Below are positions 32,607 to 53,215 of a stretch of 64,000 nt of DNA, piece after piece. This DNA comes from Candidatus Azotimanducaceae bacterium. Lineage in GTDB: Bacteria > Pseudomonadota > Gammaproteobacteria > Pseudomonadales > Azotimanducaceae. The stretch is from NCBI GenBank assembly GCA_965199945.1, contig OZ241354.1, positions 996,638 to 1,060,637 of the forward strand, read 5' to 3'. The translations under genes were made by a program, and so were the position numbers. Each line of letters starts with the position of its first letter. The first letter of the stretch is position 1. The notes under the pieces are model-generated. The model searched no databases and was not told where the DNA came from. It saw only the letters and a list, made by a program, of their open reading frames with translations.

Positions 32607-32681
32607 TCGACTCGGCCCCGCCGTGCCGTGACGACAGACTGGGGTTGCCCCGATTTCGTGCATCAACGCGGCCTTGCCCTC

Positions 32682-33410: not shown

Positions 33411-36400
33411 TTGAAGTTCAGTCCCAGACAAGCCGCCGTCGCCGCCTGCTTGCTTGCCACCTTCACGGCGGTCAGCGGCTGGGGCCAGCCGGTCGTGAGC
33501 AGCGTGGGCCTGCACGGTGCGCCGGCCGCGAGCAGCGGCGTCTACCAGTTGGCCGAGGCGATCACGGTGCGCGTCACCTTCGACCAGGCGGTGGACGTCA
33601 TCGGCGCGCCGCAGCTGGCGCTCACCATCGGCACGGCGACCCGCCAGGCGAGCTTCAGCCGGCGGACTGGAGCCTCTCTCTGGTTCGTCTACTTCGTGCA
33701 GTCGGCGGACAGCGACACGGACGGCTTCGCGGTTGGCGCGAGCGCCCTGACGTTGAACGGCGGCACGATCAAGGCCGCCGGCGGCGCGACGAACGCGACG
33801 CTGGATCTCGGCCGCCACGCGCTTGCGAACGCCAACACCTACCAGGTGAACGGCAGCTTGACGACCGCGCCGGCGGTGAGCCAGGTGTTGATTTCCAGCA
33901 CCCCGGCAAGCGGCAGCGCGTACCAGTTGGCGGAGGTCATTTGGGTTGGAATCGTCTTCGACCGGGCGGTGGACTTAACCGGCGCGCCGCAGCTGGCGCT
34001 GACCATCGGCGCAGCGACCCGGCAAGCGAGCTACGTCAGCGGCGACGGCATCGGCTATCTCTGGTTCCGCTATGCCGTGCAGTCGTCGGACGTCGACGCG
34101 GACGGCATCACCATCGCCGCCACCGCGCTGACGCTGAACGGCGGCACGATCAGAATTCGCGGCGGCACCACCAACGCCACGCTCGGCCTCGGCACCCACG
34201 CCATCATGAACTCGACCAGCCACCAAGTGAACGGCGCTTTGCAGGGCGCACCCACCGTAAGCGCCGCGTCGATCGAAAGCAGCCCGGCGCGCGGCGACAC
34301 CTACGGGCTGGCGGAGACGATCTGGGTGCGCATCTCCTTCGACCGACTCGTGGACTTGACCGGCGCGCCGCAACTCGCGCTGACCATTGGCTCGACCACC
34401 CGCCAGGCCAGCTACGACAGCGGCACGGGCACCAGCGATCTCTGGTTCCGCTACGCCGTGCAAGTGGCGGACGCCGACACGAACGGCATCAGCGTCGGCG
34501 CGAGCGCGCTGGCGCTGAACGGCGGCACGATCAGGGTCGCCGGCGGCGCCACGAACGCGACGCTCGGCCTCGGCAGCGCGGCGATCGCGAACGCCGCAAG
34601 CCACAAGGTGGATGGCGGCACGGCCGTGGCAACGCTGAGCGGCAGCAGTCCCGCCACCTTGAATCAAGGCAACCTGCGCCGGGCGACGGTCTCCGTGACC
34701 TTCGCCCCAGCCTACGCAGCCGGGGCCGACGTCTCCCACTTCACGCTCGCCACCACCGTCCCCGGCCTCTCCGTCGACAAAGTGAGCTTCAACACCGGTC
34801 GAACGGTGGCCACCCTGCGACTGCACTACGACGGCTCGGACTTCGACGCCGCCGCCGCCATCGCCGTCACCGTCGCCGCGGCCGCCACCGGGCGCCCGGC
34901 CGCGCTGACCACCCTCGCCCAGGCCGTCTTCCCGGCGCGCTGGGTCAACGTCTCGAAGAAGACCGTCGCGCTTACCGAAGGCGGCAGCGCCGGCGCCTAC
35001 ACGGTCGTCTTGGAGAGCCCGCCCACCGGCAACGTCACCGTCACCGTGACCAGCGACAACGCAGCGGTTGCCCGCAGCCCGGGCACGCTCACGTTCACCA
35101 CGCAGAACTGGAACACCGCGCAGACCGTCACGGTCACGCCGGTGGACGACAACGCGGACGCCCACGACGAGCTGGCGCTGGTCGCCAACGTCGCCGCCGG
35201 CGGCGGCTACGCGGACAGCCCCGTCGCCTCGCGCACCGTGCGCGTGACGGTCGCCGACGACGAGCAGACCGGCACCGACTACGACGCCGACGACGACGGG
35301 CTCATCGAGATCAGCGGCCACGCCCAGCTGAACGCCATGCGCTGGGACCTGGACGGCAACGGCTCGTCGCTGAACGCCGGCTACGCCACCGCCTTCCCCA
35401 GCGCCGCCACCGGCATGGGCTGCCCGGACGGCGGCGACAGCAACCAGACGCCGGACGGCTGCAAGGGCTACGAGCTGACGGCGAACATCGACCTCGACAC
35501 CGACGGCGACGGCAGCGCCGACTCCCAAGACGCCTACTGGAACGGCGGCCAGGGCTGGGATCCCATCGGCCAACAGCGCAAGAAGTCGGCCACGCCGTTC
35601 ACGGCGACGTTCCGAGGCAACGGCTATTCCGTGTCGAACATGTACCAGCACCATAGACACGACATAGAGTCCTCCGAGGCGCTCTTCGGAATAATCAGGA
35701 ACGCGCGAGTCGAATCCGTCGCGGTGCTCGGGGTCGACTTCGGCGACGGCTCGCGACTCAACAGCCCGACCGGCGCCATTGGCGCGCTCGCGGGAGTCGC
35801 CGAGGGGAGCACCGTGGCAGGCGTCTACGCCGAGGGCGCCATGAGCATTTGGAACACTGGCGCTAATGAAACAGCGGGTGGCTTGGTGGGGTATTGCGCG
35901 GGCAGCACCATCCACACGTCCTATTCCAATGTCTCGATAATGCAGGCTCTCAATCTAGGTGGCTTGGTTGGAGGCGTTGGAACAGGCTCCCGCACGAAGC
36001 AAGACAGTCTCGGCTACGGCTACGGCTGTCGGGCATACAACAGCTACGTAAACGGGGCCCTAGGTCCGCAAACCGGCTACAGGGCGGGCGAACCGTTCAC
36101 GACCGGTGCCTTGTTTGCAGGCGGCAGCAGCATCGCCGTCGGCGATTCCTATTGGGACCGACAGACCACCACCAAGACGAGCAGCAGCGGTTCGCCCGAC
36201 TCGGACGGCCTGACCACCGCCGAACTGCAAGCGCCTACCGCGGCGACGGGCATCTACGCGCAATGGGACGACTACGACGTGGATGGCGACGGCCGCGTCG
36301 ACGCGGACGACGACGCCTGGCACTTCGGCCAGGCCAACCAGTACCCGGCGCTGAAGTGGGGCGGCCACGCCGCCGCCACGCAGTTCACGGCGCAGCTGTC

Positions 36401-39400
36401 CGGACAGACGGACACGGCGCCGAGCTACGGCGGCATCTGGGTGGCCAACAAGACCTACGTGCTGGGCGCGGCGATCCAGCCGTTCCAGATCCCGCCGCCC
36501 ACCGGCGGCAACGGCACCTACGACTACACGGTGGCCGGCCTTCCGGCGGGCTTGTCCTTCGACGAAGACGGCACGGGCGACTGCATGGCCGCGCGCACGG
36601 TGTGCGGCACGCCCACCGCCACCGCGCCGACGACGGCGACCGTGACGGTGACGGTGGCGGATGCCGACGCCAACGTCATGACCAGCGATCGGGCCACCTT
36701 GACGTTCACGATTGCGCTGCGCCGGCCAAGGGTGCTGGCGACGCCGGCGCGGCTGGCAATCGCCGAAGGAGGCACCGGCGCCTATGCCGTGCGGCTGGAA
36801 CAGGCGCCCTCGGCGAACGTGACGGTGGCGGTGTCGAGCGACAACGCGACCGTGACGGCGGGCACGAGCTCGCTGACATTCACAACGCAGAACTGGAACA
36901 CGGCGCAGTCGGTGACCGTGACGGCGGCCGGCGACGCGGATGCCGTGGACGAGGCCGCGACGATCACGAACACGGCCAACGGCGGCCCTTACACCGGCGC
37001 CTCCGCGTCCGTCCAGGTCGGCGTGGACGACGACGAGGCGACTGGCACGGACCACGACGCCGACAACGACGGTCTGATCGACATCGATTCGCTGGCCAAG
37101 CTGAACGCGCTGCGCTGGGACCTCGACGGCGACGGCGCCGCCTCCTCCGGCAACGAGACGAGCTACGCCGCGGCCTTCTCCGGAGCAGTGGCGGTCGAGC
37201 ACATGGGCTGCCCGGACTCTGGCACGGACGGGGACACGGACGGCGACTGCGTCGGCTACGAGCTGACCGCGGACCTGGACTTCGACACCAACGAGGACGG
37301 CAAGGTGGACGCCGACGACGCCTTCGCCAACTGGACGCCGGTGGTCGGCTGGGCGACGATGTTCAACGGCCGAGGGCACACGATCTCCAACCTGACAGTG
37401 ACCGGCGCCGGCAACGACCGCGGCCTGTTCGGGACGACGACGACGGCGTCGACGATCCGCGCGCTGGGCCTGCTGGACGTCCGGGTGACGGGCCCCGGCG
37501 TCCGGCTGGCCGCACTGGCGGGCACGATGAACGGCAAGGTCCAAGCGGTGTACGCGTCTGGCCGGGTGTCGGGCGCCGGCGGGGTGGGCGGCCTGGTGGC
37601 CGAGATGCAGTCGGCGTCGGCGGCAATCGTGGCGTCGTACTCGACGGTGGCGGTGGAATGCACGGCCAGCGCGAACTGGGCGCGCGCCGGCGGGCTCGCG
37701 GCCCGCAACGACGGCACGATTACGACGAGCTACGCGGCGGGCGCGATCACCGGCGACTGCCCGACGGGCGTGAAGGGCGGCTTGGTGTCCACCAGCAGCG
37801 GCACGGTAACGGCGAGCTACTGGGACGCGGGCCTGACCGGCATCGCGGACGACAACGACATGGCCTCGCCGGAGGGCCTGTCGACGAGCGCCATGTGGAC
37901 GCCGACGGAGTACGGCGGGAGCGCCAGCGACGTCTACCGCCTCTGGAACGACCAGGACGTGGACGGCGACGGCGCCGTGGACGCGGACCCGTGGGACTTC
38001 GGCACCGCGCTGAACCACCCGGTGCTCAAATGGGGCGGACTGGACCCGGCCGACCAGCGCACCGACTACGACGCCGACGGCGACCGGCTGGTGGAGATTT
38101 CCACGTTGGCGCAGCTGAACGCCGTGCGCTGGGATCTGGACGGCGACGGGGCGCCGACTGCGGACAACGTGGCGGCGTACTTCGGCGCGTTCTTCAACCC
38201 CGTGTTCAACCCGAGCGGCGTGGGCTTCTGCGCGCCGACCGAGGACGACGCGGACGACAACGACTGCCTGGGCTACGAGCTGCTGAACGATCTGGACTTC
38301 GACACCGACGGCGACGACAGCACGCACGCGAACGGCGTCGGCGACTCCGACGACGCCTACTACAACGCGGACGACGGCTGGGTTCCCATCGGCCCGAACG
38401 AAACGCCGGGCGCCGCGACGCACTACCGCGCCCGCTTCGACGGCAACGGGCACGTCATCGACAACCTATTCGTGAAGCGCAGCCGCAACTACTCGGGGCT
38501 GTTCGCGGCGCTGTCGGACGCCGCGGTGGTGACGTCGCTGGGTCTGCCGGACGCCTACGTGGGCGACGGGCAGGGCACGGTGGGGATGCTGGCCGGGGCG
38601 AACCGCGGGCGCGTCGCGGCGGTGTGGTCGTCCGGTTCGGTGACGGCGAGAGGCAACGTCGGCGGCTTGGTGGGGGCGGCGCAGGCGACGTCGACGGTGG
38701 TGGCGAGCTACTCGACGGCGACCGTGGTCTGCACGCAGGCCGGCGCCTACCGCGCCGCCGGCGGGCTGGTCGGCGCCAACGGCGCGACCTCCACCATCGC
38801 GGCGAGCTACTCGACCGGGACGGTGACGGGCCCCTGCGGCCTCCGGCGCGCCTTCGCGTACAACGAGGGCACGGTGGCGGCGAGCTACTGGGACACGACC
38901 CAGACCGACATCGCGGACGACACGGAGAACCCGCCGCAGCCGCCTGAGGGCAGGACGACGGCGGTGCTGCAGGCGCCGACGGACTACGACACGGTCGTCG
39001 GCTCTCCTGGCGAGGCCATCTACGCGGCGTGGGACGACCAGGACGTGGACGGCGACGGCGCGACCGGCGACGGCGACGACGCCGACCCGTGGGACTTCGG
39101 GCTGTCGAACCAGCACCCGATCCTGAAGTACCGCGGCCTGGCGGCGGCGCCGCAGCTGGACGCGCAGCCGGACTCGGCGCCGGACTTCGGGACGGCGACG
39201 GTGTCGAACAAGACGTTCCAGAATGGCCAGGCCATCCAGGCGTTCCAGATTCCGGCGGCGGGCGCCGGCAACGGCGCGCTGGTCTACGCGGAGAGCGGGC
39301 TGCCGGCGGGCCTGTCTCTGGGAACGCCGATCTGCGCAACCGCCCGCACGGTGTGCGGCACGCCGACCGCCGACACCGCGGCGGTCACGGTGACGATCAC

Positions 39401-42400
39401 CGTCTCGGACTCCGACTCGACGATGGGTTCGGGCGACGAGGACGCGCTGACGTTCACGGTGGAGGTGGTCACGCCCTCGGCCGCGATCTCCTCGCCGGCG
39501 GCGCTGGCGGAGGCGACCTTGAGCAACGCCACGGTGACGGTGGAACTGACCAACGCCGCCTTCGAGGCCGGCGTGACGTCGAGCAGCTTCACGCTGGCGA
39601 CCAACCCTACGCTGCCTGGTCTGTCGGTCGCCTCGGTGGCGACGGTGAACGCCGGCGACACGTCGGCGACGCTCACGCTGGGCTACTCCGGCGGCAACTT
39701 CGACACGGTGCGCGCGCTGTCGGTCACGGTGGCCGATGCGGCGCACACGCTGGTCGGAGCGCTGACGACGGCGACGGTGAACATCGTGCCCACGCCGTCG
39801 GTGGCGGTGAACCCGACCAGCCTGTCGCTGACCGAGGGGAGCAGCAGCGGAACCTACACGGTGTCGCTCGGCGGCCAGCCGACCGGCAACGCCACCGTGA
39901 CGGCGACCAGCGGCGACGCCGCCGTGCATGTCGACACCGACGCCTCGCCGCTGGCGCGGACGCTCACGTTCACGCCCATGAACTGGGACACGGCGCAGAC
40001 GGTGACGGCGGCGCCGCAGGACGACGACGACGCCGCAGACGAATCCGTCACGATCGCCCACGCGGTGGCGAACTACGGCGGCGCGACGGCGGCGAGCGTG
40101 ACCGTGACGGTGGACGACGACGAGACGAACGGCATCGTGATCGACGCCGACCCGAGCACGGCGACCGTGGTGGACGCCGGCCCGGTGGCGCTGCGCGAGG
40201 ACGCGATGCACGCTGACAACTCGCGGACCTACTCGGTGAAGCTGGCGGCGGAGCCGACGGCGACGGTGACGGTGACGGTCACCAGCACCGACACGGCCGC
40301 CGTGACCGTGGACACGGACGCGGCGACCGGGCTGCAGAGCACGCTGTCGTTCACGACGACGAACTGGGACACGGCGCAGACGGTCACGCTGGCCGCGGTG
40401 GAGGACGCCGATCCGAACAACGAGGAGACGGCGATCGACCACGCCGCGGCGAACGGCGGCTACAACGGCGTCACGGGGCGGTTGACGGCGACGGTGGCGG
40501 ACGACGACGTGGGCGTGATCGTGGACACGGCCCCGGGCCGCGCCGGCGACCAGACGACGCCGATCGCGCTGCGCGAAGGGCAGACGGGGACGTACACGGT
40601 GCGCCTCTCGACGCAGCCGGCGGGCGGGAACGTGACGGTGGAGGCGACGAGCGGCAACGGCGCCATCGACGTGGCGGCGGGCGCGTCCGGGGGAACCTTC
40701 GGCAGCACGGCGAGCTTGACGTTCACGGCGACGGACTGGGCCACGGCGCAGACGGTGCGGGTGTTCGCCGAGCACGACGTGGACGCCGTGGGGGAATGGG
40801 AGGACATCTCGAACACGGCGACCGGCGGCCAGTACAGCGGCGAGACGACGGACGTCCGCGTCACGGCGCAGGACGACGAGATGGGCGGCACGGACTACGA
40901 CGCCGACGACGACTTCCGGATCGAGATCGACTCGCTCGCCAAGCTGAACGCGGTGCGCTGGGACCTCGACGGCGACGGCGACGTGGACGCGAGCGGCAAC
41001 GAGACGAGCTACCGCGCCGCCTTCGCCGGTTCGGTCATGGCGGAGGACATGGGCTGCCTGGACGGCCCGGACGCGGACCAGGAAGGCGACTGCGCCGGCT
41101 ACGAGCTGGCGGCGGCCCTGGACTTCGACACGGACGACGACGGCGACGTGGACGCGGACGACGACTACCCCAGCTGGGCGCCCATCGGCGGCACCTACTC
41201 GGCCACCTTCGACGGCAACAACCATGTGATCTCCAACCTGACCATCGTCGACGCGGCGGGCAGCGCGGGACTGTTCAACACCGTGAGCGGCGCCGTCCGC
41301 GGCCTGGGGCTGGCGGACGTCGACGTGAGCGGCGTCGGCGGCAGCAGCACCGATATCGCGCCGCTGGCGGTGGTGGTCAACGGGACGGTGATCGCGTCCT
41401 GGGCCTCGGGGCGCGTGCATGTCGGTTCGACCGGCCTCGCCCGCGCGGGCGGGCTGGTGGGCAGGGTGACCGGTTCCGGCTCCCGGCTGGCGGCCAGCTA
41501 CTCCACCGCGAGCGTCACCGGCGCGGGCAACTCCGCCTCCTACGCCGGCGGGCTGGCCGCATTGATCCACAACGGGGCGACGGTGGTGGCCTGCTACGCG
41601 ACGGGACTGGTCGACGAGGGCGGCAGCGGCAGCGTGCGCGCCGGCGGGTTGATCGGCGCCAACACTGGGCCCACCACGGTGAGGGCGTCGTACTTCGCCG
41701 GCACGGTTGCGGGCAGCGGCGTGAGCGGTGTGACCGCCGCGGACGACGGCAGCGGCGAGAACTACCACAACGTGTACTACGACTCCGGCACCACGGGGCT
41801 CACGGCGGGGTCGGCGGCCCAGACCACCAGCGCCCTGCAGGGGCCGACCTCGGCGACGGGCATGCTGTACGCGGCCTGGGACGATCTGGACGTGAACGGC
41901 AACGGCACGGCGGACGAGGATCCGTGGGATTTCGGCACGGCTTACAACCACCCGGCGCTGAAATACGGCGGCATGGACGTGGCGGCGCAGCGCAACGACT
42001 ACGACGCCGACGGCGACGGGCTGATCGACATTTCGACGCTGGGGCAGCTGCACGCGGTGCGCTGGGACCTCGACGGCGACGGCGCCCCGTCCACGGGCAA
42101 CGAGTCGAGCTACTACGGGTCGAGCGCGTTCTTCAACGGCATTTTCAGAGCGAGCGGCGTGGGCTTGTGCCCGACGACCGAGGACGACGCGGACGACAAC
42201 GACTGCGCGGGCTACGAACTGCTGAACGATCTCGACTTCGACACCGACGGCAGCGGCGCCACCTGGACGGAGAGCGGCGGCACGGTGACGGGCGATTCCA
42301 ACGACGCCTACGACAACGCCGGCGCCGGCTGGGAGCCCATCGGCGCGGCCACCGCGGTGGGCGTCTCGACGCACTTCAACGCGACGTTCGACGGCAACGG

Positions 42401-45400: not shown

Positions 45401-48400
45401 CTTCCATGCAGGCGGCAGCGTCACGGCCAGCTACGCGACGGCCGCGGCGTCAGGCACCGGCCAGATCGCGTACGTCGGCGGCCTGGCGGGAGAGGCGCAG
45501 GCGGCCGTCGCGGCCAGCTACGCCGCCGGTGCGGCGTCCGGCCACCAAGGAATCGTGCGGGTGGGCGGTCTGATCGGAAGGACCAACGCCAGCGCGGCCG
45601 TCGTCACGAACTCCTACGCGACAGGCGCCGTCAGCCGCACCGGCACCGGCACGTCTCCGCTGCTCGGCGGCCTGGTGGGCCAGCAAACCAGCGGCAGCGC
45701 AGCGGCGTCCTACTGGGACAGCCAGACATCGGGCCAGAGTTCCAGCGCCGTGGGCACGACCCAGACCACCAGCGGCCTGCAGACGCCGACCGCCTACGGC
45801 ACGGGGGCGAGCATCTACGCCGCGTGGGACGACTACGACACCAACGGCGACGGCACGGTGGACGCCGCGGACGACGCCTGGGACTTCGGCAGCGCCTACA
45901 ACTATCCGGCGTTGAAGTACGGCGGGCTGGACCCGGCCTCCCAGCGCAACGACTACGACGCGGACGACGACGGGCTGATCGACATCGCGTCGCTGGGGCA
46001 GCTGAACGCGGTGCGCTGGGACCTCGACGGCGACGGGGCGCCCTCCACCGGGAACGAGGCGAGCTACCACGGCGCCGCCGCGTTCTTCAATCCGCGCTTC
46101 AACCCGGGCGGCGCCGGCCTCTGCCCGACGACCGCGGCCGACGCGGACGACGACGACTGCGCCGGCTACGAGCTGCTGAACGACCTGGACTTCGACGTCG
46201 ACGGCGACAACGACGTGGACGCCAACGACGCCGGCTCCTACCCCAACTGGACGCCCATCGGCGGCACCTTCGCTGCCGCCTTCGAGGGCAACGGCCGCAC
46301 GATTTCGCACCTGACGAGAACCGGCGGCGGCGGAGGCGGCGGGCTGTTCAACGACGCCAGCGGCGCCGTGCGCAATCTGGGCCTTCCCGACGTGAACATC
46401 ACCGACGCGGGCACGGACTCCGTGCAGACCGTCGCCGCGCTGGCGGACCGCTTGCTCGGCAGCGACGCGGAAGCGACCGCCGTGTGGGCCACGGGCACGG
46501 TGGCGTCGACGGGGAGCACCCGGGTCGGCGGCCTGGTGGGCCACGTCAGGGAAGGCGCGCGACTGGCGGCCGCCTTCTTCGGCGGCACGGTGACCGCCTC
46601 CGGCGCAAGCGAAACCGGCTACGCCGGGGGGCTGGTGTACGCGCTGTTCCAGAACGCCACGCTGACGGCAGGCTACTTCAGCGGCAGCGCGACGGCAACC
46701 AACGGCGTCGCCGGCCTTGTCCACGTGTGCGGCTACAACGCGACGATGAGCGCGTCCTACGCCGCTGCCAGCCTCTCCGCGCCAGCGCCGTCCCTGACGA
46801 CGACCGGAACCGGGGGGGTCGTCAACCAGTTGGAGATCGACGACGGCCCCTGCACGGCCAACGACGTCTACTTCGATTCGACCGCCGCCTCGGGAGTGAG
46901 CGCCGTACGCGGCTCGGGGCAGACCACGACGGCCTTGCAAAGCCCGACCTCCGCGGCCGGCATCTACGCCGACTGGGACGATCTGGACGTGGACGACGAC
47001 GGCAGCGCGACCGAAGACCCGTGGGATTTCGGGCTGCCGAACCAGTATCCGGTGCTCGGCTACCGCGGCATTCCGGAGACGCCGCAGCTGGACGCGCAGC
47101 CGGACACGGCGCCGGCCTTCTCGGGCACGGTGGACGACATGACGCTGCCGGGCAACGTGGCGGTGGAGTTCCAGGTTCCGGCCGCGACGGCCGGCAACGG
47201 CGCCTACCGCTACGCCGCGAGCGGGCTGCCGGCCGGGCTGTCCTTCGGCCTGCCGGACTGCGCGGACGAGCGCACGGTGTGCGGTGCGCCCACCGCGGCG
47301 TCCACGGGGACGGTGACGGTCACGGTGTCCGACAGCGACAGCAACATGGAGGCGACCGACCGCGACACGCTGACCTTCATGGCGACCGTGCCGGCGGCCT
47401 CTGCGAGCATCGCCAGCACGACGCCGCCGGCGCTGATGGAAACCAACCTGAACGGCGCGCGGGTAGTCGTCGAGCTGGCCGGCAGCGTGTTCCACGGCCT
47501 CTCGCCGGCGGGCTTCGCGCTGGCGACCACGCCGCCGATTGCCGGCCTCTCCATCGCCTCGGCGACGAGGACCAGCCCCACCCAGGCGACGCTGACGCTG
47601 CGCTTCGACGGCACGGACTTCAATACGCAGGCGACGCTGCTGGTGCGCGTGCTGGCGGCGGCGCACCGCTTCGGCGGCGACCAGGACACGGGCGCGGTGG
47701 CGGTGGCGCCGGCCGGCGGCGTGATGCTCTCGGCGACGACGCTGGCGCTGGAGGAGGATCCCGGAACCAGCAACGCCAACGTCGGCACCTACACCGCGGT
47801 GCTGACCGGCCAGCCGGCCGGCGCGGTGACCGTGACGCCGGCGAGCAGCAACCCGGACGTGACCCTGAGCGGGGCGCTGACGTTCAACGCGACGAACTGG
47901 AACACGGCGCAGACGGTGACCGCGACGGCCGGCGCGGACGACGACGCGGTGGACGACGTGGCGCACGTCACGCACGCGGTGCAGGGCGTGCCGGGCGTCA
48001 CGAGCGGCCCGCGGGTGCGGGTGACGGTGAACGACAAGGACGCCCAGGGCCTGACGCTGGACGCGGCGACGCTGGCCGGCAGCGGCGTGACGGAAGGCAT
48101 GACGGCGACGTACACGGCGGTGCTCGACAGCGAGCCGACGGGGCCGGTGACGGTAGCCGTTTCCAGCAGCGAGGACGCCGCGACGGTGGACGCGGACGCC
48201 GGCGCGGCCGGCGCCCAGAACACGCTGCTGTTCCACGCCATGAACTGGAACACGCCGCAGACGGTGACCGTCCGCGCCGCCGAGGACGACGACGGCGAGA
48301 GCGAGACCGCGACGCTTGCCCACGCCGTCTCCGGCGCGGACTACGGCGAGGTGGCCGACGTGGACGTGTCGTTCACGGTGTCCGACAACGACGCGAAGGG

Positions 48401-51400
48401 CGCGACGCTGTCCACGACGACGCTGAACGTGCAGGAGAACGGCACGGCGACCTACACGCTGGTTCTGGACACGCAGCCGGTCGACGGCGCCGTGAGCGTG
48501 GCGGTGGGGATCGGATCGCAGACCGCCGCCACGGCCAGCCCGGAGACGCTGGCGTTCACGGCCGGGAACTGGGACGCGCCGCAGACGGTGATCGTGGTGG
48601 GCGTGGACGACGCCAACACGGGCAACGAGATCGTCGCGTTCACCCACACGCCGACCGGAGGGGGCTACGACGGCGTGTCCATCGCCAACATCAACGTGAC
48701 GGCCGTGGACGACGACGTGGCCGGCCTGAAGGTGTCGCCGACCTCGCTGACGGTGGCGGAGGGCGCGACGGCGACGTACACGGTGCGCCTGAACGTCGCG
48801 CCGACGGGAACGACGACGGTGACGGTGGGCGGGGCGACGGCGAAGCTGGCGGCGGACACGGACACGGGCACGCCCGGCGACCAGACGACGCTCTCCTTCG
48901 ACGCGGCGAACTGGGACACGGCGCAGACGGTGACCGTGACCGGCGCCGAGGACGCCGACGGCGCCGACGAGACCGTCGGCCTCGCGCACGCCGTGGCCGG
49001 CACGGGCGACTACGCCGCGCTGGCGGCGATCCGGCGCCCGGGCGTGGACGTGCTGGTGCGCGACGACGAGACCGCCGGCGTCGTGCTGTCGCCTTCGTCG
49101 CTGGCGATCGACGAAGGCGGCACGGCGACCTACGACGTGGAGCTCTCGGCGCCGCCGGCGACCGGCGCCGTCACGGTGACCATCGCGGCGACGGGCATGG
49201 CCGGACTGACGACGGACGCCAGCGCGCTCTCCTTCACCACGACCACCTGGGACACGGCGCAGACGGTGACGGTCACGGCGGTGGCCGACCACGCCCGGCT
49301 GGAGAACGCCCGAGGGACGCTGACCCATGCCGTGGCCGGCTACGGCGCGGTGGAGTCCGGCCCGGATCTGCCGGTGCGGGTGGCGAACACGACGGTGGAC
49401 TACGACGTCGACGCCGACGGGCTGATCGAGGTCGGCAGCCTGGCGCAGCTGAACGCGATGCGCTGGGACCTCGACGGCGACGGCGCGGCGTCCTCCGGCA
49501 ACGCGGCGATGTACGCCACGGCGTTCCCGACCCCGCGCGGCGGCGGCGTCTGCCCGACGGCGACCTCGGGGACGGCCTGCGACGGCTTCGAGCTGACCGC
49601 GGACCTCGACTTCGACACCGACGGCGACGGCGCCACGCACGCGGACGGCGCGGGCGACGACGGCGACGACTACGACAACGGCGGCGCCGGCTGGACGCCG
49701 GTCGGCGCCGACGCGGCGACGCCGTTCGCGGGGCGGTTCGACGGCAACGGGCGCATCGTGCGCAACCTGTTCGTGAACCAGGCCGCGGCCAACTACCGGG
49801 GCCTGTTCGGGGTCGTGTCGGGGCGCATCGCGGCGGTGGGCCTGGCGAACGCCTGGGTGCGCGGTGCGCACGGCGCGGGGGCGCTGGCCGGCTTCGCCAG
49901 CGCCGCGGCGAGCGTGACGGGCGCCTGGAGCACGGGTGCCGTGTCGGGCGACGCGTCGGCCGGCGGCCTGGTGGGGCGGACGCAGACCGGCGCGCGCATC
50001 GCCGCGAGCTACTCGACGGCGGCGGTGGAGTGCCGCAACGCGGCGAGCGGCTACGCCGGCGGCCTGGCGGGCGGCGGCAGCAGCGGAACGACGGCGGTGT
50101 CGACGAGCTGGTCGGCGGGGGCGGTGACCGGCGCCTGCCCGGACAAGGCCGGCCTGATCGGCGAGCGCGCGGCGGCAACCGCCAGCTGGTGGGACGCGGC
50201 GGCATCCGGCATCCCCGACGACGCGGACCTAGACTCCCCGGAGGGACGCAGCACGTCGGACTTGCAGACGCCGACCAGCTACGCGGGCCTCTACGCGAAT
50301 TGGAACGTCGACCTCGACGGCGACTACGACGCGGACGATCCGTGGCACTTCGGCAGCCCGCGCCAGTACCCGTCGCTGAAGTGGCGCGGCTTCGATCCGT
50401 CGAAGCAGTTCGCCGTGGCCGAGGCGCCGGAACCGGAGCCGGCGGAGGCATCATCGAGCGTTCCGACGGAGGTGCGCGCGGAGACGACGTCCCAGGGCCT
50501 GCTGGTGACGTGGCGGGCGGCGGCCGGGGCGACGGCGTACCTGGTGCAGTGGCGGCAGTCTGGGCAGGCGTGGTCGTCGCAGCGGCAGGCGGAGACTTCA
50601 GAGACGCGCTACGAGATCGCCGGGCTGCCGGCCGGCGCCTACGAGGTGCGCGTGCTGGCGGTGGTCGACGGCGAGGCCGGCGAGCCGTCGGCGCCGGCGC
50701 GGGGCGAGTCGGGCGTACCGAACCGCCCGCCGCTGGCGCACGGCATCGCGGACGTGGACATGGACGTCGGGAAGACGGCGGAGGTGGATTTGGACGCCGC
50801 GTTCTCGGACCCGGACGGCGACGTCCTGCGCTACGCGGCGTCCGCGGATGGAGACGTGGTGCAGGCGTGGGCCTCGGGCGAGACGCTGCGGCTGCGCGGG
50901 ATGCGCCCTGGCGAGGCGACGGTGACGGCGACCGCGACCGACCCCGAGGGCCTGTCGGCGAGCGCGTCGTTCGCGGTTCGGGTGGGCGCGGTGCTGTCGC
51001 TGCGCGGGAATCCGGCGGCGCCGGAGGGCGGCGAGGCGGTGCTGACCGCGGAACTGAGCCGGCCGCTCGGCTCGGACGTGGAGGTCGGCTGGCGCCTGGC
51101 CGCGGACGGCGAACCCGGCACGGCTGACGCCGACGCGGCGGACTTCGCGGCGTGGGCCGGAACGGCGACGATCGCCGCCGGCCAGACGCGGGCGCGGATC
51201 GTGCTCGCGGTGCTGGACGACGACGAGATCGAACCGGCGCGGGAGCGCTTCGCGGTCGAGCTCGAAGAGCCGGCGGATCCGAACGTGGGCCTGTCGGCGC
51301 GCGCCTGGCGGGCGCTCGGCGCCGTGCAGGAGGGCGTGTGCGACCGGACGCCTGCCGTGCGCGCGGAACTGTCCCGCGGCTGGCGCGCCTGCCGTTGGCC

Positions 51401-52334
51401 GGGAACTCTGGACCTGGCGCGCCTGCCGCGTCTCGACCTGCGCGGCGCCGGCGCCGAATCGCTGCGCGCCGACGACCTGCTGGGCCTGTCCGGGCTGCGG
51501 ACGCTGGACCTGGGTGGGAACGCGCTGCGCGAACTGCCGGCGGCGCTGCTCTCCCACTCGCCGCGCCTGCGTTCGCTGCGGCTGGACGGCAACCGCCTGC
51601 AGTCGCTGCCGGCGGCCCTGTTCGCGGGCGTCTCCGGCCTGCGCGAACTGCGCCTGTCCGGGAACCCCGGGGCGCCGTTCGCGCTGGCGCCGGTACTGCG
51701 CCGGACGGACGCCGAGCCGTGGGCGGCTGGCCCGGCGACGGTCGAGGCGCATCTGCCCCTGGGCGCGCCGTTCGCCATGCGCCTGGCGCTGTCGGCGATG
51801 GGCGGCGAAGCGTCGGCGGAGGAACTGGCGCTCGCTGCCGGCGCCGTGGCCAGCGGCGCGATGCAGGTCTCCGGCGACGGCCCGGTGCGCGTGACGCTGG
51901 CCGCGCCGACGATCCCGGACGCGCGCTGCGGCGACGGCCCGTGCTTCAACGGCCTTGCCCCGGAAGGCTCCGCGCTGGCGCTGTTCGCAACGCCGCCACG
52001 CATGGCTGGCGAAGTCGCGCCGGCGGAGCTCCTGGGCGCCGACGCCGTGCGCATCGACCTCTCGGCGCACTTCGCGGCGGGCGGCGGCGGGACGCTCTCG
52101 TACTCGGCGGCGGTGGATGACCCCCGCCTGGCGACGGCCTCCGTGGACGGCTCGATCCTGACCGTGGCGGCGAACGAGGACGGCGAGGAAGGCTTCGCCA
52201 CCGTGACGGTGGTCGCCACGGACGAAGCGGGCCAGACCGCGACCCTGCGCTTCCAGGTGGAGGTCTCGCCGCGACCGCCCGGCAACTGGCGCGGCTGGCG
52301 TTCAACCATCGAGACGCCGGCGGCCGGGCAGTAG
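33411..52334 (+). CDS. Giant secreted multi-repeat protein (6,307 aa): signal peptide, 3 N-terminal ~123-aa repeats, 8 Ca-binding/GLUG beta-helix modules, 4 He_PIG-type Ig domains, many Ig-like and Calx-beta-like domains, FN3, LRR
   Basis: A single uninterrupted ORF, 33411..52334, with a TTG start. The N-terminus is MKFSPRQAAVAACLLATFTAVSGWGQ. The motif DYDADDDGLIEI..L.QLNA.RWDLDGDG occurs 8 times, followed by F(D/R)GNGH.ISNL and GGLVG-type (GLUG) repeats, ending ...DPWDFG..NQ(Y/H)P.LK(W/Y). LP(A)GLS...GTPT marks the He_PIG domains. LTFT..NW(N/D)TAQTVTV...DD.D..(D/E)E marks the beta-sandwich domains. Confidence 0.9.
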   Translation: MKFSPRQAAVAACLLATFTAVSGWGQPVVSSVGLHGAPAASSGVYQLAEAITVRVTFDQAVDVIGAPQLALTIGTATRQASFSRRTGASLWFVYFVQSADSDTDGFAVGASALTLNGGTIKAAGGATNATLDLGRHALANANTYQVNGSLTTAPAVSQVLISSTPASGSAYQLAEVIWVGIVFDRAVDLTGAPQLALTIGAATRQASYVSGDGIGYLWFRYAVQSSDVDADGITIAATALTLNGGTIRIRGGTTNATLGLGTHAIMNSTSHQVNGALQGAPTVSAASIESSPARGDTYGLAETIWVRISFDRLVDLTGAPQLALTIGSTTRQASYDSGTGTSDLWFRYAVQVADADTNGISVGASALALNGGTIRVAGGATNATLGLGSAAIANAASHKVDGGTAVATLSGSSPATLNQGNLRRATVSVTFAPAYAAGADVSHFTLATTVPGLSVDKVSFNTGRTVATLRLHYDGSDFDAAAAIAVTVAAAATGRPAALTTLAQAVFPARWVNVSKKTVALTEGGSAGAYTVVLESPPTGNVTVTVTSDNAAVARSPGTLTFTTQNWNTAQTVTVTPVDDNADAHDELALVANVAAGGGYADSPVASRTVRVTVADDEQTGTDYDADDDGLIEISGHAQLNAMRWDLDGNGSSLNAGYATAFPSAATGMGCPDGGDSNQTPDGCKGYELTANIDLDTDGDGSADSQDAYWNGGQGWDPIGQQRKKSATPFTATFRGNGYSVSNMYQHHRHDIESSEALFGIIRNARVESVAVLGVDFGDGSRLNSPTGAIGALAGVAEGSTVAGVYAEGAMSIWNTGANETAGGLVGYCAGSTIHTSYSNVSIMQALNLGGLVGGVGTGSRTKQDSLGYGYGCRAYNSYVNGALGPQTGYRAGEPFTTGALFAGGSSIAVGDSYWDRQTTTKTSSSGSPDSDGLTTAELQAPTAATGIYAQWDDYDVDGDGRVDADDDAWHFGQANQYPALKWGGHAAATQFTAQLSGQTDTAPSYGGIWVANKTYVLGAAIQPFQIPPPTGGNGTYDYTVAGLPAGLSFDEDGTGDCMAARTVCGTPTATAPTTATVTVTVADADANVMTSDRATLTFTIALRRPRVLATPARLAIAEGGTGAYAVRLEQAPSANVTVAVSSDNATVTAGTSSLTFTTQNWNTAQSVTVTAAGDADAVDEAATITNTANGGPYTGASASVQVGVDDDEATGTDHDADNDGLIDIDSLAKLNALRWDLDGDGAASSGNETSYAAAFSGAVAVEHMGCPDSGTDGDTDGDCVGYELTADLDFDTNEDGKVDADDAFANWTPVVGWATMFNGRGHTISNLTVTGAGNDRGLFGTTTTASTIRALGLLDVRVTGPGVRLAALAGTMNGKVQAVYASGRVSGAGGVGGLVAEMQSASAAIVASYSTVAVECTASANWARAGGLAARNDGTITTSYAAGAITGDCPTGVKGGLVSTSSGTVTASYWDAGLTGIADDNDMASPEGLSTSAMWTPTEYGGSASDVYRLWNDQDVDGDGAVDADPWDFGTALNHPVLKWGGLDPADQRTDYDADGDRLVEISTLAQLNAVRWDLDGDGAPTADNVAAYFGAFFNPVFNPSGVGFCAPTEDDADDNDCLGYELLNDLDFDTDGDDSTHANGVGDSDDAYYNADDGWVPIGPNETPGAATHYRARFDGNGHVIDNLFVKRSRNYSGLFAALSDAAVVTSLGLPDAYVGDGQGTVGMLAGANRGRVAAVWSSGSVTARGNVGGLVGAAQATSTVVASYSTATVVCTQAGAYRAAGGLVGANGATSTIAASYSTGTVTGPCGLRRAFAYNEGTVAASYWDTTQTDIADDTENPPQPPEGRTTAVLQAPTDYDTVVGSPGEAIYAAWDDQDVDGDGATGDGDDADPWDFGLSNQHPILKYRGLAAAPQLDAQPDSAPDFGTATVSNKTFQNGQAIQAFQIPAAGAGNGALVYAESGLPAGLSLGTPICATARTVCGTPTADTAAVTVTITVSDSDSTMGSGDEDALTFTVEVVTPSAAISSPAALAEATLSNATVTVELTNAAFEAGVTSSSFTLATNPTLPGLSVASVATVNAGDTSATLTLGYSGGNFDTVRALSVTVADAAHTLVGALTTATVNIVPTPSVAVNPTSLSLTEGSSSGTYTVSLGGQPTGNATVTATSGDAAVHVDTDASPLARTLTFTPMNWDTAQTVTAAPQDDDDAADESVTIAHAVANYGGATAASVTVTVDDDETNGIVIDADPSTATVVDAGPVALREDAMHADNSRTYSVKLAAEPTATVTVTVTSTDTAAVTVDTDAATGLQSTLSFTTTNWDTAQTVTLAAVEDADPNNEETAIDHAAANGGYNGVTGRLTATVADDDVGVIVDTAPGRAGDQTTPIALREGQTGTYTVRLSTQPAGGNVTVEATSGNGAIDVAAGASGGTFGSTASLTFTATDWATAQTVRVFAEHDVDAVGEWEDISNTATGGQYSGETTDVRVTAQDDEMGGTDYDADDDFRIEIDSLAKLNAVRWDLDGDGDVDASGNETSYRAAFAGSVMAEDMGCLDGPDADQEGDCAGYELAAALDFDTDDDGDVDADDDYPSWAPIGGTYSATFDGNNHVISNLTIVDAAGSAGLFNTVSGAVRGLGLADVDVSGVGGSSTDIAPLAVVVNGTVIASWASGRVHVGSTGLARAGGLVGRVTGSGSRLAASYSTASVTGAGNSASYAGGLAALIHNGATVVACYATGLVDEGGSGSVRAGGLIGANTGPTTVRASYFAGTVAGSGVSGVTAADDGSGENYHNVYYDSGTTGLTAGSAAQTTSALQGPTSATGMLYAAWDDLDVNGNGTADEDPWDFGTAYNHPALKYGGMDVAAQRNDYDADGDGLIDISTLGQLHAVRWDLDGDGAPSTGNESSYYGSSAFFNGIFRASGVGLCPTTEDDADDNDCAGYELLNDLDFDTDGSGATWTESGGTVTGDSNDAYDNAGAGWEPIGAATAVGVSTHFNATFDGNGKIIDNLFVNRARDNSGLFAGLSANAKVRALGLPDALVRAGQDNVGVLAGESRGRIGAVWSSGAVVGDDDVGGLVGENRSFIAASYSTAAVECEDATGSGAGLAGVNSLLIDTSYSTGEVTGACATKAGLATGAGAAIGSYWDADLSRIADDVDDPPASPEGKSTLDLQTPTAYGTGDDDLYSTWDEQDVDGDGVYGEEEDGDPWEFGLPNQHPILKYRGLAAAPQLAAQPPVPDFGDRTVSNKTFQNGRAIQSFQVPAASGGNGALVYAQNGLPAGLSLGTPTCATARTVCGTPTADTAAVTVTITVSDSDMTTGSTDEDTLTFTVEVVTPSAAISSPAALAEATLNGAMVTVALTNAAFEVGAGTGNFSLTTNPALPGLSVSALATVNAGDTSATLTLGYSGGNFDTVRTFAVTVADSAHTLAGALTTGTVNIVPTPSVAVSPTSLTVTEGGSSGTYTVRLGGQPTGNVVVTATSNDAAATIDTDATPLTRALTFTPMNWNTAQTVTVAPADDDDAVDESVTISHAVANYGGATAASVSVTVEDDETARIVIDADPSTANVVDAGPVALQEDAMHADNSRTYSVKLAAEPTGTVTVTVASADTAAVTVDTAPATGLQSTLTFATTNWDTAQTVTLAAVQDDDPTSEEIAIDHAAQGGGYNGVAARLTATVADDDVGVLVDTDPNTSGDQTTPLALREGQTRTYRVRLSTLPAAGNVTVAVASGNGAIDVAAGASGGTFGSAANLTFTATDWATAQTVRVFAEHDADAVGEWTTISNAATGAQYSGETTTVRATARDDEMRGTDYDADDDFLIEIDSLAKLNAVRWDLDGDGDVDSSANEASYRAAFAGSIMAEDMGCLDGPDVDQEGDCAGYELMAALDFDTDSDGDVDADDPNSHANWAPIGGSYTAAFHGNNRAISNLTTSGAGDRGLFAALGTGSRVSNLGLLDVAVSSTSGTAGTINAGGLAAVNRGAVVAVHVRGGAVSASVSTANVRAGGLVGFHAGGSVTASYATAAASGTGQIAYVGGLAGEAQAAVAASYAAGAASGHQGIVRVGGLIGRTNASAAVVTNSYATGAVSRTGTGTSPLLGGLVGQQTSGSAAASYWDSQTSGQSSSAVGTTQTTSGLQTPTAYGTGASIYAAWDDYDTNGDGTVDAADDAWDFGSAYNYPALKYGGLDPASQRNDYDADDDGLIDIASLGQLNAVRWDLDGDGAPSTGNEASYHGAAAFFNPRFNPGGAGLCPTTAADADDDDCAGYELLNDLDFDVDGDNDVDANDAGSYPNWTPIGGTFAAAFEGNGRTISHLTRTGGGGGGGLFNDASGAVRNLGLPDVNITDAGTDSVQTVAALADRLLGSDAEATAVWATGTVASTGSTRVGGLVGHVREGARLAAAFFGGTVTASGASETGYAGGLVYALFQNATLTAGYFSGSATATNGVAGLVHVCGYNATMSASYAAASLSAPAPSLTTTGTGGVVNQLEIDDGPCTANDVYFDSTAASGVSAVRGSGQTTTALQSPTSAAGIYADWDDLDVDDDGSATEDPWDFGLPNQYPVLGYRGIPETPQLDAQPDTAPAFSGTVDDMTLPGNVAVEFQVPAATAGNGAYRYAASGLPAGLSFGLPDCADERTVCGAPTAASTGTVTVTVSDSDSNMEATDRDTLTFMATVPAASASIASTTPPALMETNLNGARVVVELAGSVFHGLSPAGFALATTPPIAGLSIASATRTSPTQATLTLRFDGTDFNTQATLLVRVLAAAHRFGGDQDTGAVAVAPAGGVMLSATTLALEEDPGTSNANVGTYTAVLTGQPAGAVTVTPASSNPDVTLSGALTFNATNWNTAQTVTATAGADDDAVDDVAHVTHAVQGVPGVTSGPRVRVTVNDKDAQGLTLDAATLAGSGVTEGMTATYTAVLDSEPTGPVTVAVSSSEDAATVDADAGAAGAQNTLLFHAMNWNTPQTVTVRAAEDDDGESETATLAHAVSGADYGEVADVDVSFTVSDNDAKGATLSTTTLNVQENGTATYTLVLDTQPVDGAVSVAVGIGSQTAATASPETLAFTAGNWDAPQTVIVVGVDDANTGNEIVAFTHTPTGGGYDGVSIANINVTAVDDDVAGLKVSPTSLTVAEGATATYTVRLNVAPTGTTTVTVGGATAKLAADTDTGTPGDQTTLSFDAANWDTAQTVTVTGAEDADGADETVGLAHAVAGTGDYAALAAIRRPGVDVLVRDDETAGVVLSPSSLAIDEGGTATYDVELSAPPATGAVTVTIAATGMAGLTTDASALSFTTTTWDTAQTVTVTAVADHARLENARGTLTHAVAGYGAVESGPDLPVRVANTTVDYDVDADGLIEVGSLAQLNAMRWDLDGDGAASSGNAAMYATAFPTPRGGGVCPTATSGTACDGFELTADLDFDTDGDGATHADGAGDDGDDYDNGGAGWTPVGADAATPFAGRFDGNGRIVRNLFVNQAAANYRGLFGVVSGRIAAVGLANAWVRGAHGAGALAGFASAAASVTGAWSTGAVSGDASAGGLVGRTQTGARIAASYSTAAVECRNAASGYAGGLAGGGSSGTTAVSTSWSAGAVTGACPDKAGLIGERAAATASWWDAAASGIPDDADLDSPEGRSTSDLQTPTSYAGLYANWNVDLDGDYDADDPWHFGSPRQYPSLKWRGFDPSKQFAVAEAPEPEPAEASSSVPTEVRAETTSQGLLVTWRAAAGATAYLVQWRQSGQAWSSQRQAETSETRYEIAGLPAGAYEVRVLAVVDGEAGEPSAPARGESGVPNRPPLAHGIADVDMDVGKTAEVDLDAAFSDPDGDVLRYAASADGDVVQAWASGETLRLRGMRPGEATVTATATDPEGLSASASFAVRVGAVLSLRGNPAAPEGGEAVLTAELSRPLGSDVEVGWRLAADGEPGTADADAADFAAWAGTATIAAGQTRARIVLAVLDDDEIEPARERFAVELEEPADPNVGLSARAWRALGAVQEGVCDRTPAVRAELSRGWRACRWPGTLDLARLPRLDLRGAGAESLRADDLLGLSGLRTLDLGGNALRELPAALLSHSPRLRSLRLDGNRLQSLPAALFAGVSGLRELRLSGNPGAPFALAPVLRRTDAEPWAAGPATVEAHLPLGAPFAMRLALSAMGGEASAEELALAAGAVASGAMQVSGDGPVRVTLAAPTIPDARCGDGPCFNGLAPEGSALALFATPPRMAGEVAPAELLGADAVRIDLSAHFAAGGGGTLSYSAAVDDPRLATASVDGSILTVAANEDGEEGFATVTVVATDEAGQTATLRFQVEVSPRPPGNWRGWRSTIETPAAGQ
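33490..34615 (+). repeat. Three tandem ~123-aa N-terminal repeats of the giant protein
   Basis: The pattern YQLAE.I.V...FD..VD..GAPQLALTIG..TRQAS......LWF.Y.VQ..D.D.DG......AL.LNGGTI...GG.TNATLGLG...I.N...H.V.G occurs three times. Confidence 0.8.
39085..41245 (+). repeat. Internal long duplication, copy A (He_PIG + Ig + four Calx-like domains + start of a GLUG module)
   Basis: High nucleotide identity (by eye roughly 85-90%) to 43006-45170. The offset is 3921 nt at TACCGCGGCCT (39129 vs 43050) and 3924 nt at GGCAACAACC (41214 vs 45138). Confidence 0.85.
43006..45170 (+). repeat. Internal long duplication, copy B
   Basis: See copy A. The protein segments are collinear, for example PILKYRGLAAAPQL...TVCGTPTADTAAVTVTITVSDSD...EVVTPSAAISSPAALAEATL. 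Confidence 0.85.
50460..50715 (+). other. Fibronectin type III domain of the giant protein
   Basis: PTEVRAETTSQGLLVTWRAAAGATAYLVQWRQSGQAWSSQRQAETSETRYEIAGLPAGAYEVRVLAV. Confidence 0.7.
51408..51670 (+). other. Leucine-rich repeat region of the giant protein
   Basis: LDLARLPRLDLRGAG..., LSGLRTLDLGGNALRELPAALLSHSPRLRSLRLDGNRLQSLPAALFAGVSGLRELRLSGNP. Confidence 0.75.
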
Positions 52335-52426
52335 GCTGAGCATGAACGGCCGCCATGTCGCACCCGGACAGGGGCGTACTTTGGCATGTTGTTTTGGCAT
52401 CCAACCATGAGGCGCATAATCGCCCC

Positions 52427-53166: not shown

Positions 53167-53215
53167 GCGCGTTGACTGCACGCTGGCTTGCGAACGCGCC
53201 CGATGCCGAATGAGG

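Follow-up and report, generated by a model that had tools for sequence, protein, structure and literature searches.

An 18.9-kb gene of Candidatus Azotimanducaceae for a giant, putatively Sec-exported protein with eight GLUG-type beta-helix modules

What sort of protein a bacterium makes from a single 18.9-kb gene, and whether such a product is peculiar to one genome, are questions raised by a 64,000-nucleotide stretch of a Candidatus (Ca.) Azotimanducaceae genome (assembly GCA_965199945.1, contig OZ241354.1, positions 996,638 to 1,060,637), hereafter the window. The gene occupies window positions 33411-52334 on the forward strand (+; reverse strand, -), starts with TTG and runs through 6,307 codons as one uninterrupted open reading frame (ORF) with no internal stop. 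A preliminary description made from the sequence presented it as an intact gene for a secreted protein built from an unusual eight-fold calcium-binding GLUG module, and suggested adhesion or partner interaction. The analysis reported here confirms that observation and partly supports its interpretation: the architecture is as described and adhesion is plausible, but the module is not unusual.

The core of the protein is a module of ~350 amino acids (aa) that occurs eight times. All copies align from end to end, with 53 invariant columns, and identity to module 3 is 41-59%. The signature RWDLDG lies at nucleotides (nt) 35340, 37113, 38127, 40956, 42060, 44874, 46014 and 49461, each within 6 nt of its earlier placement. 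The eight-module alignment also reproduces the order of motifs given before: a DYDADxDG loop, L.QLNA.RWDLDGDG, a Cys...Cys linker, DLDFDTDGDG and F.GNG..ISNL in the first half, then GGLVG/ASYSTG rungs and a closing LQ.PT..IY..WD..DVDGDG..DPWDFG..Q.P.LK. One listed element, 'GNGH', is exact in only one of the eight modules. Loops of the form Dx[DN]x[DN]G number 41, compared with 1.07 +/- 1.0 in residue shuffles, and 38 of them lie inside modules, at four conserved regions. The protein is acidic (754 D+E against 268 K+R) and contains 42 Cys, mostly in closely spaced pairs; EF-hand and dockerin matches in the modules are below Pfam thresholds.

Profile and structural comparisons place the module among GLUG-type beta-helices. 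Pfam was run on single modules and short segments, skipping only aa 3215-3799, a ~80% identical duplicate of aa 1908-2493; slices of ~1,700 aa had given no matches in the first three, probably owing to composition or repeat filtering. Pfam Glug (PF07581), a motif of 28 aa, exceeds its threshold in one of the eight modules (21.4 against 20.5 bits), is sub-threshold in five (11.7-19.4 bits) and finds nothing in two. Peptidase_M26_N matches marginally, and NCBIfam gives noise only on the modules (ZmpA/ZmpC 7.7-11 bits against a cut-off of 3000). A profile of all eight modules matches Protein Data Bank (PDB) entries 3n6z_A (6e-14), 6xjb/7jgj/6xja (1.4e-12), 7uvl (2.6e-10) and 7uvk (8.5e-10) over a core of positions ~94-275; 3n6z is a 'putative IgA1 protease' (BACOVA_03286), and the other matches are beta-helices of IgA1 proteases from S. 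pneumoniae and G. haemolysans. An AF2 model of module 3, the kind of check that the preliminary description had proposed, was built from 72 sequences (pLDDT 85.6, pTM 0.90) and has a strand-helix-loop-helix N-terminal part, a low-confidence loop before two conserved Cys, a beta-helix at ~residues 125-278 and then a helical and strand cap. Foldseek ranks 3n6z, 7uvl, 6xja, 7jgj and 7uvk as its top five matches (probability 0.92-1.00), and pectate lyases, tailspikes and pentapeptide proteins trail at E>0.2 and probability <0.2. The earlier GLUG assignment is borne out by PDB profile and Foldseek. By profile and model, the module is predicted to be a GLUG-type right-handed beta-helix with four calcium-type loops and a disulfide-type linker.

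The closest structural counterparts are the M26 IgA1 proteases (6xja/7jgj, 7uvk/7uvl) and 3n6z, which share the module core by homology and make up the Foldseek top five. The IgA1 protease beta-helix is a small domain that folds independently and shifts by ~10 A upon substrate binding (PMC7695701), and the GGLxG/SYSTG rungs of our module correspond to the Pfam Glug motif. Differences are nevertheless marked. The giant protein has no metalloprotease, G5 or LPXTG part, and the beta-helix domain is iterated eight times per chain here but is used once in the proteases. Two parts of the module have no sequence match in the GLUG structures, namely the ~90-aa N-terminal part, with two DxDxDG loops, two helices and the Cys-Cys loop, and the ~80-aa C-terminal cap, which bears the fourth calcium-type loop.

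The claim that the module is unusual does not survive a wider search. Its core is a known GLUG beta-helix, and an exhaustive hidden Markov model search with the whole ~340-position module over 1.84 billion representative proteins matched 77,373 representative clusters at E<=1e-3, 51,568 at E<=1e-10 and 14,442 at E<=1e-30. Every one of the 150 best matches is a giant (1,209-7,362 aa) in which 3-27 stretches match, mostly along the entire profile. A word-indexed search listed proteins of up to ~620 aa only, and locus inspection revealed several to be fragments of broken giant genes; since that search is length-biased, we do not claim that single-module proteins predominate. PF07581 is precomputed in about half of the homologues among the matches listed. 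A scan of GTDB species genomes yielded at least 276 relatives. The closest, at 86-92% aa identity, occur in closed long-read metagenome-assembled genomes (MAGs) of Ca. Azotimanducaceae (Gammaproteobacteria, Pseudomonadales; GTDB HTCC2089), and others occur in MAGs of Dehalococcoidia/Chloroflexota, Acidobacteriota, Latescibacterota and Ca. Oxydemutator, the last described as sponge- or coral-associated. Homologous loci translate to ORFs of 2,000 to >7,000 aa with 4-17 matched module stretches, and within one Azotimanducaceae genome there are at least 7-8 distinct giant loci of ~7-20+ kb each, some in tandem; MAGs of Dehalococcoidia, Acidobacteriota and Latescibacterota likewise carry such giant genes. 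Taken singly, the giant gene is ordinary for its lineage. The RpsB protein of the window is 83% identical to its best named match, from a gammaproteobacterial MAG, in line with the taxonomic placement of the closest relatives.

The eight-fold architecture is typical of a large unannotated family. That family is common yet undefined, because Pfam holds only the 28-aa Glug motif and the marginal Peptidase_M26_N match and NCBIfam holds nothing significant, so that neither library has a full-length model. The preliminary description had asked whether the module might already be a defined family with a known secretion partner; it proves to be a common family of known fold, with no full-module library model and no known partner. 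Literature searches on GLUG motif proteins, sponge-symbiont giant proteins and these taxa turned up no functional description, and full-text searches on GLUG found no sponge-symbiont paper. A domain unit found in >50,000 representative clusters without a full-length Pfam or NCBIfam model or a characterised member represents a gap in annotation, and a curated model would annotate much metagenomic dark matter.

The rest of the chain consists of smaller domains, whose coordinates are given in Table 1. The signal peptide is followed by three ~128-aa repeats, a ~100-aa domain, one copy of a ~120-aa repeat (R120), module 1 (M1), a He_PIG domain, R120 and M2-M3. Next comes a unit of He_PIG, ~100-aa domain, three R120 copies and two modules that occurs twice, related by a 3.37-kb duplication. 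The chain ends with He_PIG, a ~100-aa domain, five R120 copies, M8, FN3, Ig (Big_9/He_PIG), a Calx-like domain, LRR and an Ig-like domain with the tail. The ~128-aa repeats have no Pfam or PDB sequence match and also occur inside four paralogues (L013, L014, L016 and L017). What had been described as blocks of 1 to ~9 Calx-like domains are in fact 13 R120 copies (jackhmmer E 1e-29 to 1e-56) in blocks of 1, 1, 3, 3 and 5, together with four copies of another domain, of ~100 aa. R120 has no Pfam family and no PDB sequence match by profile; Calx-beta (PF03160) matches one of 13 copies (E 0.0016) and LapA two of 13, the weak LapA-domain matches (E 0.001-0.007) being below threshold. With the R120 model, the best Foldseek match is SbsB (TM 0.56, 16% identity), and pilus chaperones and CALX-CBD1 score alike at ~E 1e-4, the latter (3ead) ranking tenth (E 1e-4, TMt 0.62, 20% identity). 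'Calx-like' is consequently a loose, fold-level label, because R120 is a generic Ig-like sandwich for which SbsB and pilus chaperones score equally or better. Pfam Calx-beta stays below its threshold of 27 bits throughout the protein; its best score, in the Calx-like domain of the tail, is 22.5 bits.

Other assignments fare better. Two of the He_PIG domains reported between modules are above the Pfam threshold of 24 bits (36.4 and 31.8 bits, with a further 29.5 for the Ig domain of the tail), and HYR also exceeds its threshold (25.6 bits). In the tail, fn3, Big_9 and LRR_8 stand and Calx-beta falls short. The LRR finds its best PDB sequence matches in IGFALS, LRRC15, Toll and LGR4/5, with E down to 4e-24, and the Ig and Calx-like domains of the tail cassette are kept in paralogues.

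How such a protein might leave the cell is addressed by its two ends. TTG 33411 is the sole start that provides a hydrophobic leader (MKFSPRQAAVAACLLATFTAVSG, cut before WGQP), because an in-frame TAG at 33399 closes the frame upstream and the later in-frame start codons fall within or beyond the leader; the short Sec-type signal recognized earlier is thereby retained. Paralogues bear classical AXA Sec signal peptides (e.g., ...LLAGASAFA, cut before QS). A lipoprotein reading of Cys13 (VAAC) was judged unlikely, given a preceding hydrophobic stretch of 5 residues and paralogue leaders of the signal peptidase I type. The C-terminus is ...WRGWRSTIETPAAGQ, and the tail reads ...SPRPPGNWRGWRSTIETPAAGQ. 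The last 70 aa of the protein contain no hydrophobic stretch or transmembrane (TM) segment and match no sorting-tail family in Pfam; PEP-CTERM, GlyGly-CTERM, LPXTG and T9SS CTD/Por_Secre_tail signatures were not found. A GlyGly-CTERM/rhombosortase route was considered and rejected because the tail has no GG-TM-basic signal, despite a rhomboid-family gene at 26610-27185. Tandem RTX nonapeptides are absent from the 6,307 aa (a single GGxGxD at aa 712 appears to be due to chance, and HemolysinCabind is unmatched), and Pfam scans detected no two-partner secretion (TPS) domain or C-terminal beta-barrel. In agreement with the preliminary description, no secretion-system genes are visible in the window.

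The tail itself is a conserved feature of the lineage. The sequence SPRPPGxWRGWR(S/I).., at window positions 52281-52331, is also the extreme C-terminus in L003, L005, L008, L010, L011, L032, L048 and L071, and the Ig-Calx-like-LRR-Ig cassette with the WRGWR tail is terminal in these eight paralogues as well as in 18 database fragments, all from close relatives. A second class of paralogues ends in ...GKWRLTVSS..V(M)SL..xxGxLxNLS... (...GKWRLTVSS...SNLSTPGRR). Neither tail resembles a known sorting signal. Multi-module giants of Dehalococcoidia (L047 and L060) close with a hydrophobic helix followed by basic residues (...WTLIGIPIALLVLGATFFIYRRSLRP), a C-terminal membrane anchor that is not present in the window protein; these TM-anchored homologues suggest a cell-surface location for the giant family.

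We favour, with moderate confidence, the reading that the gene encodes a Sec-exported, calcium-rigidified extracellular fibre, probably used for adhesion or recognition by a marine gammaproteobacterium and belonging to a multigene family that is diversifying. Such a fibre would be a strongly acidic, calcium-stabilised chain of ~650 kDa in a beads-on-a-string arrangement. Its eight autonomous modules, GLUG-type beta-helices with EF-hand/dockerin-like DxDxDG caps and a disulfide-type linker, would be set apart by Ig-like spacers, and a conserved FN3-Ig-Calx-like-LRR-Ig cassette ends the chain. Binding to a host, matrix or partner surface would fall to the faces of the beta-helices and to the animal-type LRR of the terminal cassette, and the Ig domains would serve as calcium-rigidified spacers. 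The gene is a member of a large, fast-diversifying family of Ca. Azotimanducaceae (HTCC2089) within a bigger, cross-phylum family of multi-module GLUG proteins. Adhesion or partner interaction, as first proposed, seems the most reasonable role on sequence grounds; calcium binding, extracellular location, adhesive function and an outer-membrane route are what we infer.

Known systems offer partial parallels to this adhesive fibre. LapA, MpIBP, SiiE and BapA, which are RTX adhesins of the type I secretion system (T1SS), are likewise giant, acidic chains of calcium-loop-rich, Ig-like beads with ligand-binding modules near one end. The protein described here differs from them in having a Sec leader and no RTX nonapeptides. 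Its N-terminus has no retention module and its C-terminus no T1SS signal region, and T1SS genes were not found in the 64-kb window. FHA, pertactin and the H. influenzae IgA1 protease are, similarly, Sec-dependent large beta-helix surface proteins of Proteobacteria. In the giant protein, however, neither a TPS domain nor an extended signal peptide was detected, and the C-terminus shows no beta-barrel; no TpsB gene lies nearby, and the helices form short discrete modules rather than one long helix. The FN3 and animal-type LRR tail recalls the eukaryotic-like proteins of sponge and invertebrate symbionts, and module homologues occur in Dehalococcoidia, Latescibacterota, Acidobacteriota and Ca. 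Oxydemutator, which are typical of sponge microbiomes. Reports of eukaryotic-like proteins usually describe proteins of small to medium size in which the eukaryote-like repeat predominates, whereas that repeat accounts for <4% of the giant chain.

Several points weigh against an adhesive fibre. No route by which a diderm host could pass the protein across its outer membrane is visible, no anchor is evident and the WRGWR tail is not hydrophobic. A tblastn search with 11 window neighbours, including both S8 subtilases upstream, around ~70 homologous loci found none that recurs, and for that reason neither a dedicated protease for processing nor a dedicated partner for secretion was considered further. 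The homologues carry source names of 'hypothetical protein' or 'FN3 domain-containing', and the association of the source organism with a host or sponge is circumstantial. A smaller caveat is that no Shine-Dalgarno-like sequence was seen at suitable spacing 5' of TTG 33411. Finally, the sole characterised role of the GLUG beta-helix type is gating of a protease active site, not adhesion (PMC7695701).

If the fibre does not bind a specific partner, it could be a structural envelope or matrix protein, i.e., a calcium-crosslinked S-layer-like coat or biofilm scaffold with a protective or spacing function. We consider this unlikely, although it accords with the extreme acidity, the wealth of calcium-type loops, the many paralogues per genome and the lack of an obvious single tip-adhesin domain besides the short LRR. 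A further point in its favour, the Foldseek match of R120 to SbsB, an S-layer protein, reflects a generic Ig-like fold that pilus chaperones and CALX match equally well, and Pfam found no SLH or other wall- or outer-membrane-binding domain. S-layer proteins are normally encoded by single, very highly expressed genes, not by families of paralogues of 4-7 k aa.

A broader proposal, which we put forward tentatively and regard as improbable in its entirety, is that the ~350-aa unit is an undescribed autonomous domain family that builds giant surface proteins across phyla, and that the WRGWR-tail cassette is a new export, anchoring or recognition signal. The unit may combine an EF-hand/dockerin-like double calcium loop, a disulfide loop, a GLUG beta-helix and a calcium-loop PWDFG cap, and it is possibly shared by horizontal transfer among co-habiting marine symbionts (probably of sponges or invertebrates) for host or matrix recognition. 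The Azotimanducaceae Ig-Calx-like-LRR-Ig cassette with its SPRPPGxWRGWRST end may be a signal by which a Sec-dependent protein of >600 kDa crosses the outer membrane. The puzzle that this addresses is how a diderm moves and retains a ~650-kDa Sec-dependent protein without a T1SS, type V secretion system or sorting signature.

It is very unlikely that the modules are enzymes (polysaccharide lyases or hydrolases) and the protein a giant multi-catalytic machine for glycan degradation. Right-handed beta-helices do scaffold pectate, rhamnogalacturonan and fucoidan lyases and tailspike depolymerases, some of which appear lower in the Foldseek list, and Ca2+ is a pectate lyase cofactor. Those lyase and tailspike matches, however, have E 0.3-2, probability <0.2 and TM 0.1-0.23, in contrast to the high probabilities of the GLUG structures, and lyase and hydrolase families are unmatched in Pfam and NCBIfam. 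Many invariant residues of the module are Gly, Trp, Phe, Leu, Cys or loop Asp, and no catalytic activity has been reported for GLUG helices of known structure (PMC7695701).

Still less credible is that the protein belongs to an M26-type (ZmpA/IgA1) metalloprotease system as a degenerate or accessory component, whose modules would present substrates to, or gate them for, a protease with its gene elsewhere, such as the adjacent S8 subtilases. The modules are indeed homologous to the M26 N-terminal beta-helix in sequence and fold, with marginal Peptidase_M26_N, ZmpA and ZmpC matches, and two S8 subtilase genes lie divergently upstream. Yet neither HExxH nor a Peptidase_M26_C match is present in the 6,307 aa, the subtilases adjoin none of the ~70 paralogous or homologous loci, and the subtilase pair is a separate insertion or deletion relative to the syntenic contig L077.

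It is highly improbable that the ORF stems from misassembly, with repeats collapsed or expanded, or is a chance frame kept open by high G+C. Grounds for suspicion are that the gene is strongly repetitive, that orthologue contigs of low coverage are fragmented and that a short-read contig from a relative with 99% RpsB identity stops just ahead of the giant-gene region. In addition, window G+C is 70% and many long ORFs are spurious, including antisense and out-of-frame ORFs over the giant gene (38466-45407 (-) and others, up to 2,313 aa) that result from 72-76% G+C and repetitive codon usage and that naive ORF callers could mis-annotate as genes. Against this, G+C at third codon positions (GC3) is 0.94 and the high-GC3 phase is unchanged across ~33450-52350 except for one dip within module 1, while HMM matches and protein-level homologues, which exist for every segment, are confined to the frame of the giant gene; these three properties indicate that the frame is genuinely coding. 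The repeats within the gene have diverged too far to cause an assembly collapse: no exact repeat exceeds 53 nt, and the closest pair, a segmental duplication of 3.37 kb (37943-41276 against 41876-45197), is 82.7% identical at the nucleotide level. Closed genomes of relatives contain ORFs of this architecture that are intact and 3.9-5.5 k aa long. The gene is real in at least two assemblies, because an independent long-read contig from another sample, L078, bears the orthologous, colinear 3' 10.5 kb.

The locus itself varies among strains. The giant gene is flanked by core chromosomal genes (thyX, uvrC, gap, rpsB-tsf, a nuoF-like gene, tRNAs and others), and two tandem S8 subtilase genes (29649-32666 (-)) lie upstream in divergent orientation. 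L077, from a relative whose RpsB is 97% identical, follows the window colinearly from 14208 to 29705 but has no subtilase block (29705-32693); its synteny stops at ~32.8 kb, ahead of the giant gene, where ftsH takes the place of that gene. L078 matches 41786-45197 at 94.5% and 46963-53176 at 92.2% and keeps downstream synteny with genes 95.7-96.1% identical, and L001 matches 34442-39167 at 95.5%. The orthologue comparison proposed in the preliminary description thus gives colinearity over most of the 3' part; the intervening segment is much more divergent, with window 45197-46963 (the end of module 6 and module 7) and L078 3463-5155 aligning only in patches at ~82-85% nt identity, which suggests gene conversion among paralogues or diversifying selection. 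The giant gene is situated at a synteny breakpoint in a strain-variable locus and diverges faster than its flanks. Strain-variable, fast-diverging loci of this kind fit surface proteins under diversifying selection and are candidates for host or partner recognition.

Table 1. Features of the giant gene and its product, in window coordinates (all on the + strand).
Feature	Position (nt)	Residues (aa)	Basis and remarks
TTG start and Sec-type signal peptide	33411..33482	1-24	Sequence inspection; predicted cleavage between VSG and WG
Three ~128-aa N-terminal repeats	33492..34658	28-416	Self-BLAST, 55-63% identity; one DxDxDG loop apiece
~100-aa domain, copy a	34659..34940	417-510	Self-similarity; Pfam none
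R120 Ig-like repeat, copy 1	34941..35273		jackhmmer, alignment
Module 1, GLUG-type beta-helix (predicted)	35274..36359	622-983	Alignment, Pfam, profile search; most divergent copy
He_PIG Ig domain 1	36423..36719		Pfam He_PIG
R120, copy 2	36729..37046		jackhmmer
Modules 2 and 3, tandem	37047..39131	1213-1541 and 1551-1907	Alignment, profile search; module 3 modelled
He_PIG, further copies	39183-39476, 43104-43394, 47112-47390		Copies 2 and 3 by self-similarity only
~100-aa domain, three more copies	39477-39797, 43395-43715, 47391-47717		Self-similarity
R120, copies 3-5	39798..40889		jackhmmer; copy 3 an Ig-like sandwich by AF2, pLDDT 81
Modules 4 and 5, tandem	40890..43052	2494-2852 and 2862-3214	Alignment, profile search
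R120, copies 6-8	43716..44807		jackhmmer; within the 3.37-kb segmental duplication
Modules 6 and 7, tandem	44808..47063	3800-4170 and 4180-4551	Alignment; most divergent segment against the L078 orthologue
R120, copies 9-13	47718..49394		jackhmmer
Module 8	49395..50384	5329-5658	Alignment, profile search
FN3	50460..50702		Pfam fn3, 34.3 bits against 25
Ig (Big_9/He_PIG), then Calx-like domain	50721..51335		Big_9, 36.2 bits against 23.6; He_PIG, 29.5 bits
LRR, animal extracellular type	51378..51740		Pfam LRR_8, 52.5 bits against 27
C-terminal Ig-like domain and tail SPRPPGxWRGWRST....	51978..52331		HYR/He_PIG-like matches

Other genes of the window deserve brief mention. Upstream of the giant gene, at 32766-33140 (-), is a 124-aa ORF with a strong GGAGG Shine-Dalgarno sequence, an N-terminal TM helix and a coiled-coil-like region with four to five 7-residue repeats of GLSGRVD; it is absent from protein collection records, as is the exact UvrC protein of the window. 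Downstream, a P-II-like gene and a CBS-domain gene (52355-53166 (+)) are co-directional with the giant gene and overlap each other by 4 nt, and a tRNA-Gly(GCC) follows at 53217-53291 (-). The preliminary description had reported frameshifts in two other genes of the window, which holds for at least one: a penicillin amidase (acylase) gene at 59900-62520 (+) is frameshifted near 61.8 kb. ORF 59900-61846 covers positions 2-463 of the 675 in the Pfam family, and the C-terminal part lies in the frame of ORF 60541-62520; the L078 orthologue is intact at 812 aa. Between the CoA-transferase and GCS2 genes, 57351-58878 (ORF 57366-59213, -) is a 1.5-kb insertion relative to L078 with a weak UPF0236 (transposase-like) match and is probably an insertion sequence element.

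Further upstream, 13258-17700 (-) may be a cluster of the lasso-peptide type or another ribosomally synthesized and post-translationally modified peptide (RiPP) type, with an Asn-synthase-like gene (13258-15111) and an HPr-kinase-like/sulfotransferase fusion (15146-17044); a PqqD-like gene adjoins it in the syntenic contigs L074 and L077. Two tandem genes of the Uma2 family (putative restriction endonucleases; 17926-18843 and 19182-20150 (+)) are ~80% identical at the nucleotide level by cross-hits, and more tandem Uma2 arrays adjoin a GLUG gene in L076. The GAPDH homologue at 7911-9410 (+) has ~130 residues before its NAD-binding domain (Gp_dh_N from residue 134), an excess that represents either a mis-set upstream start or a real extension.

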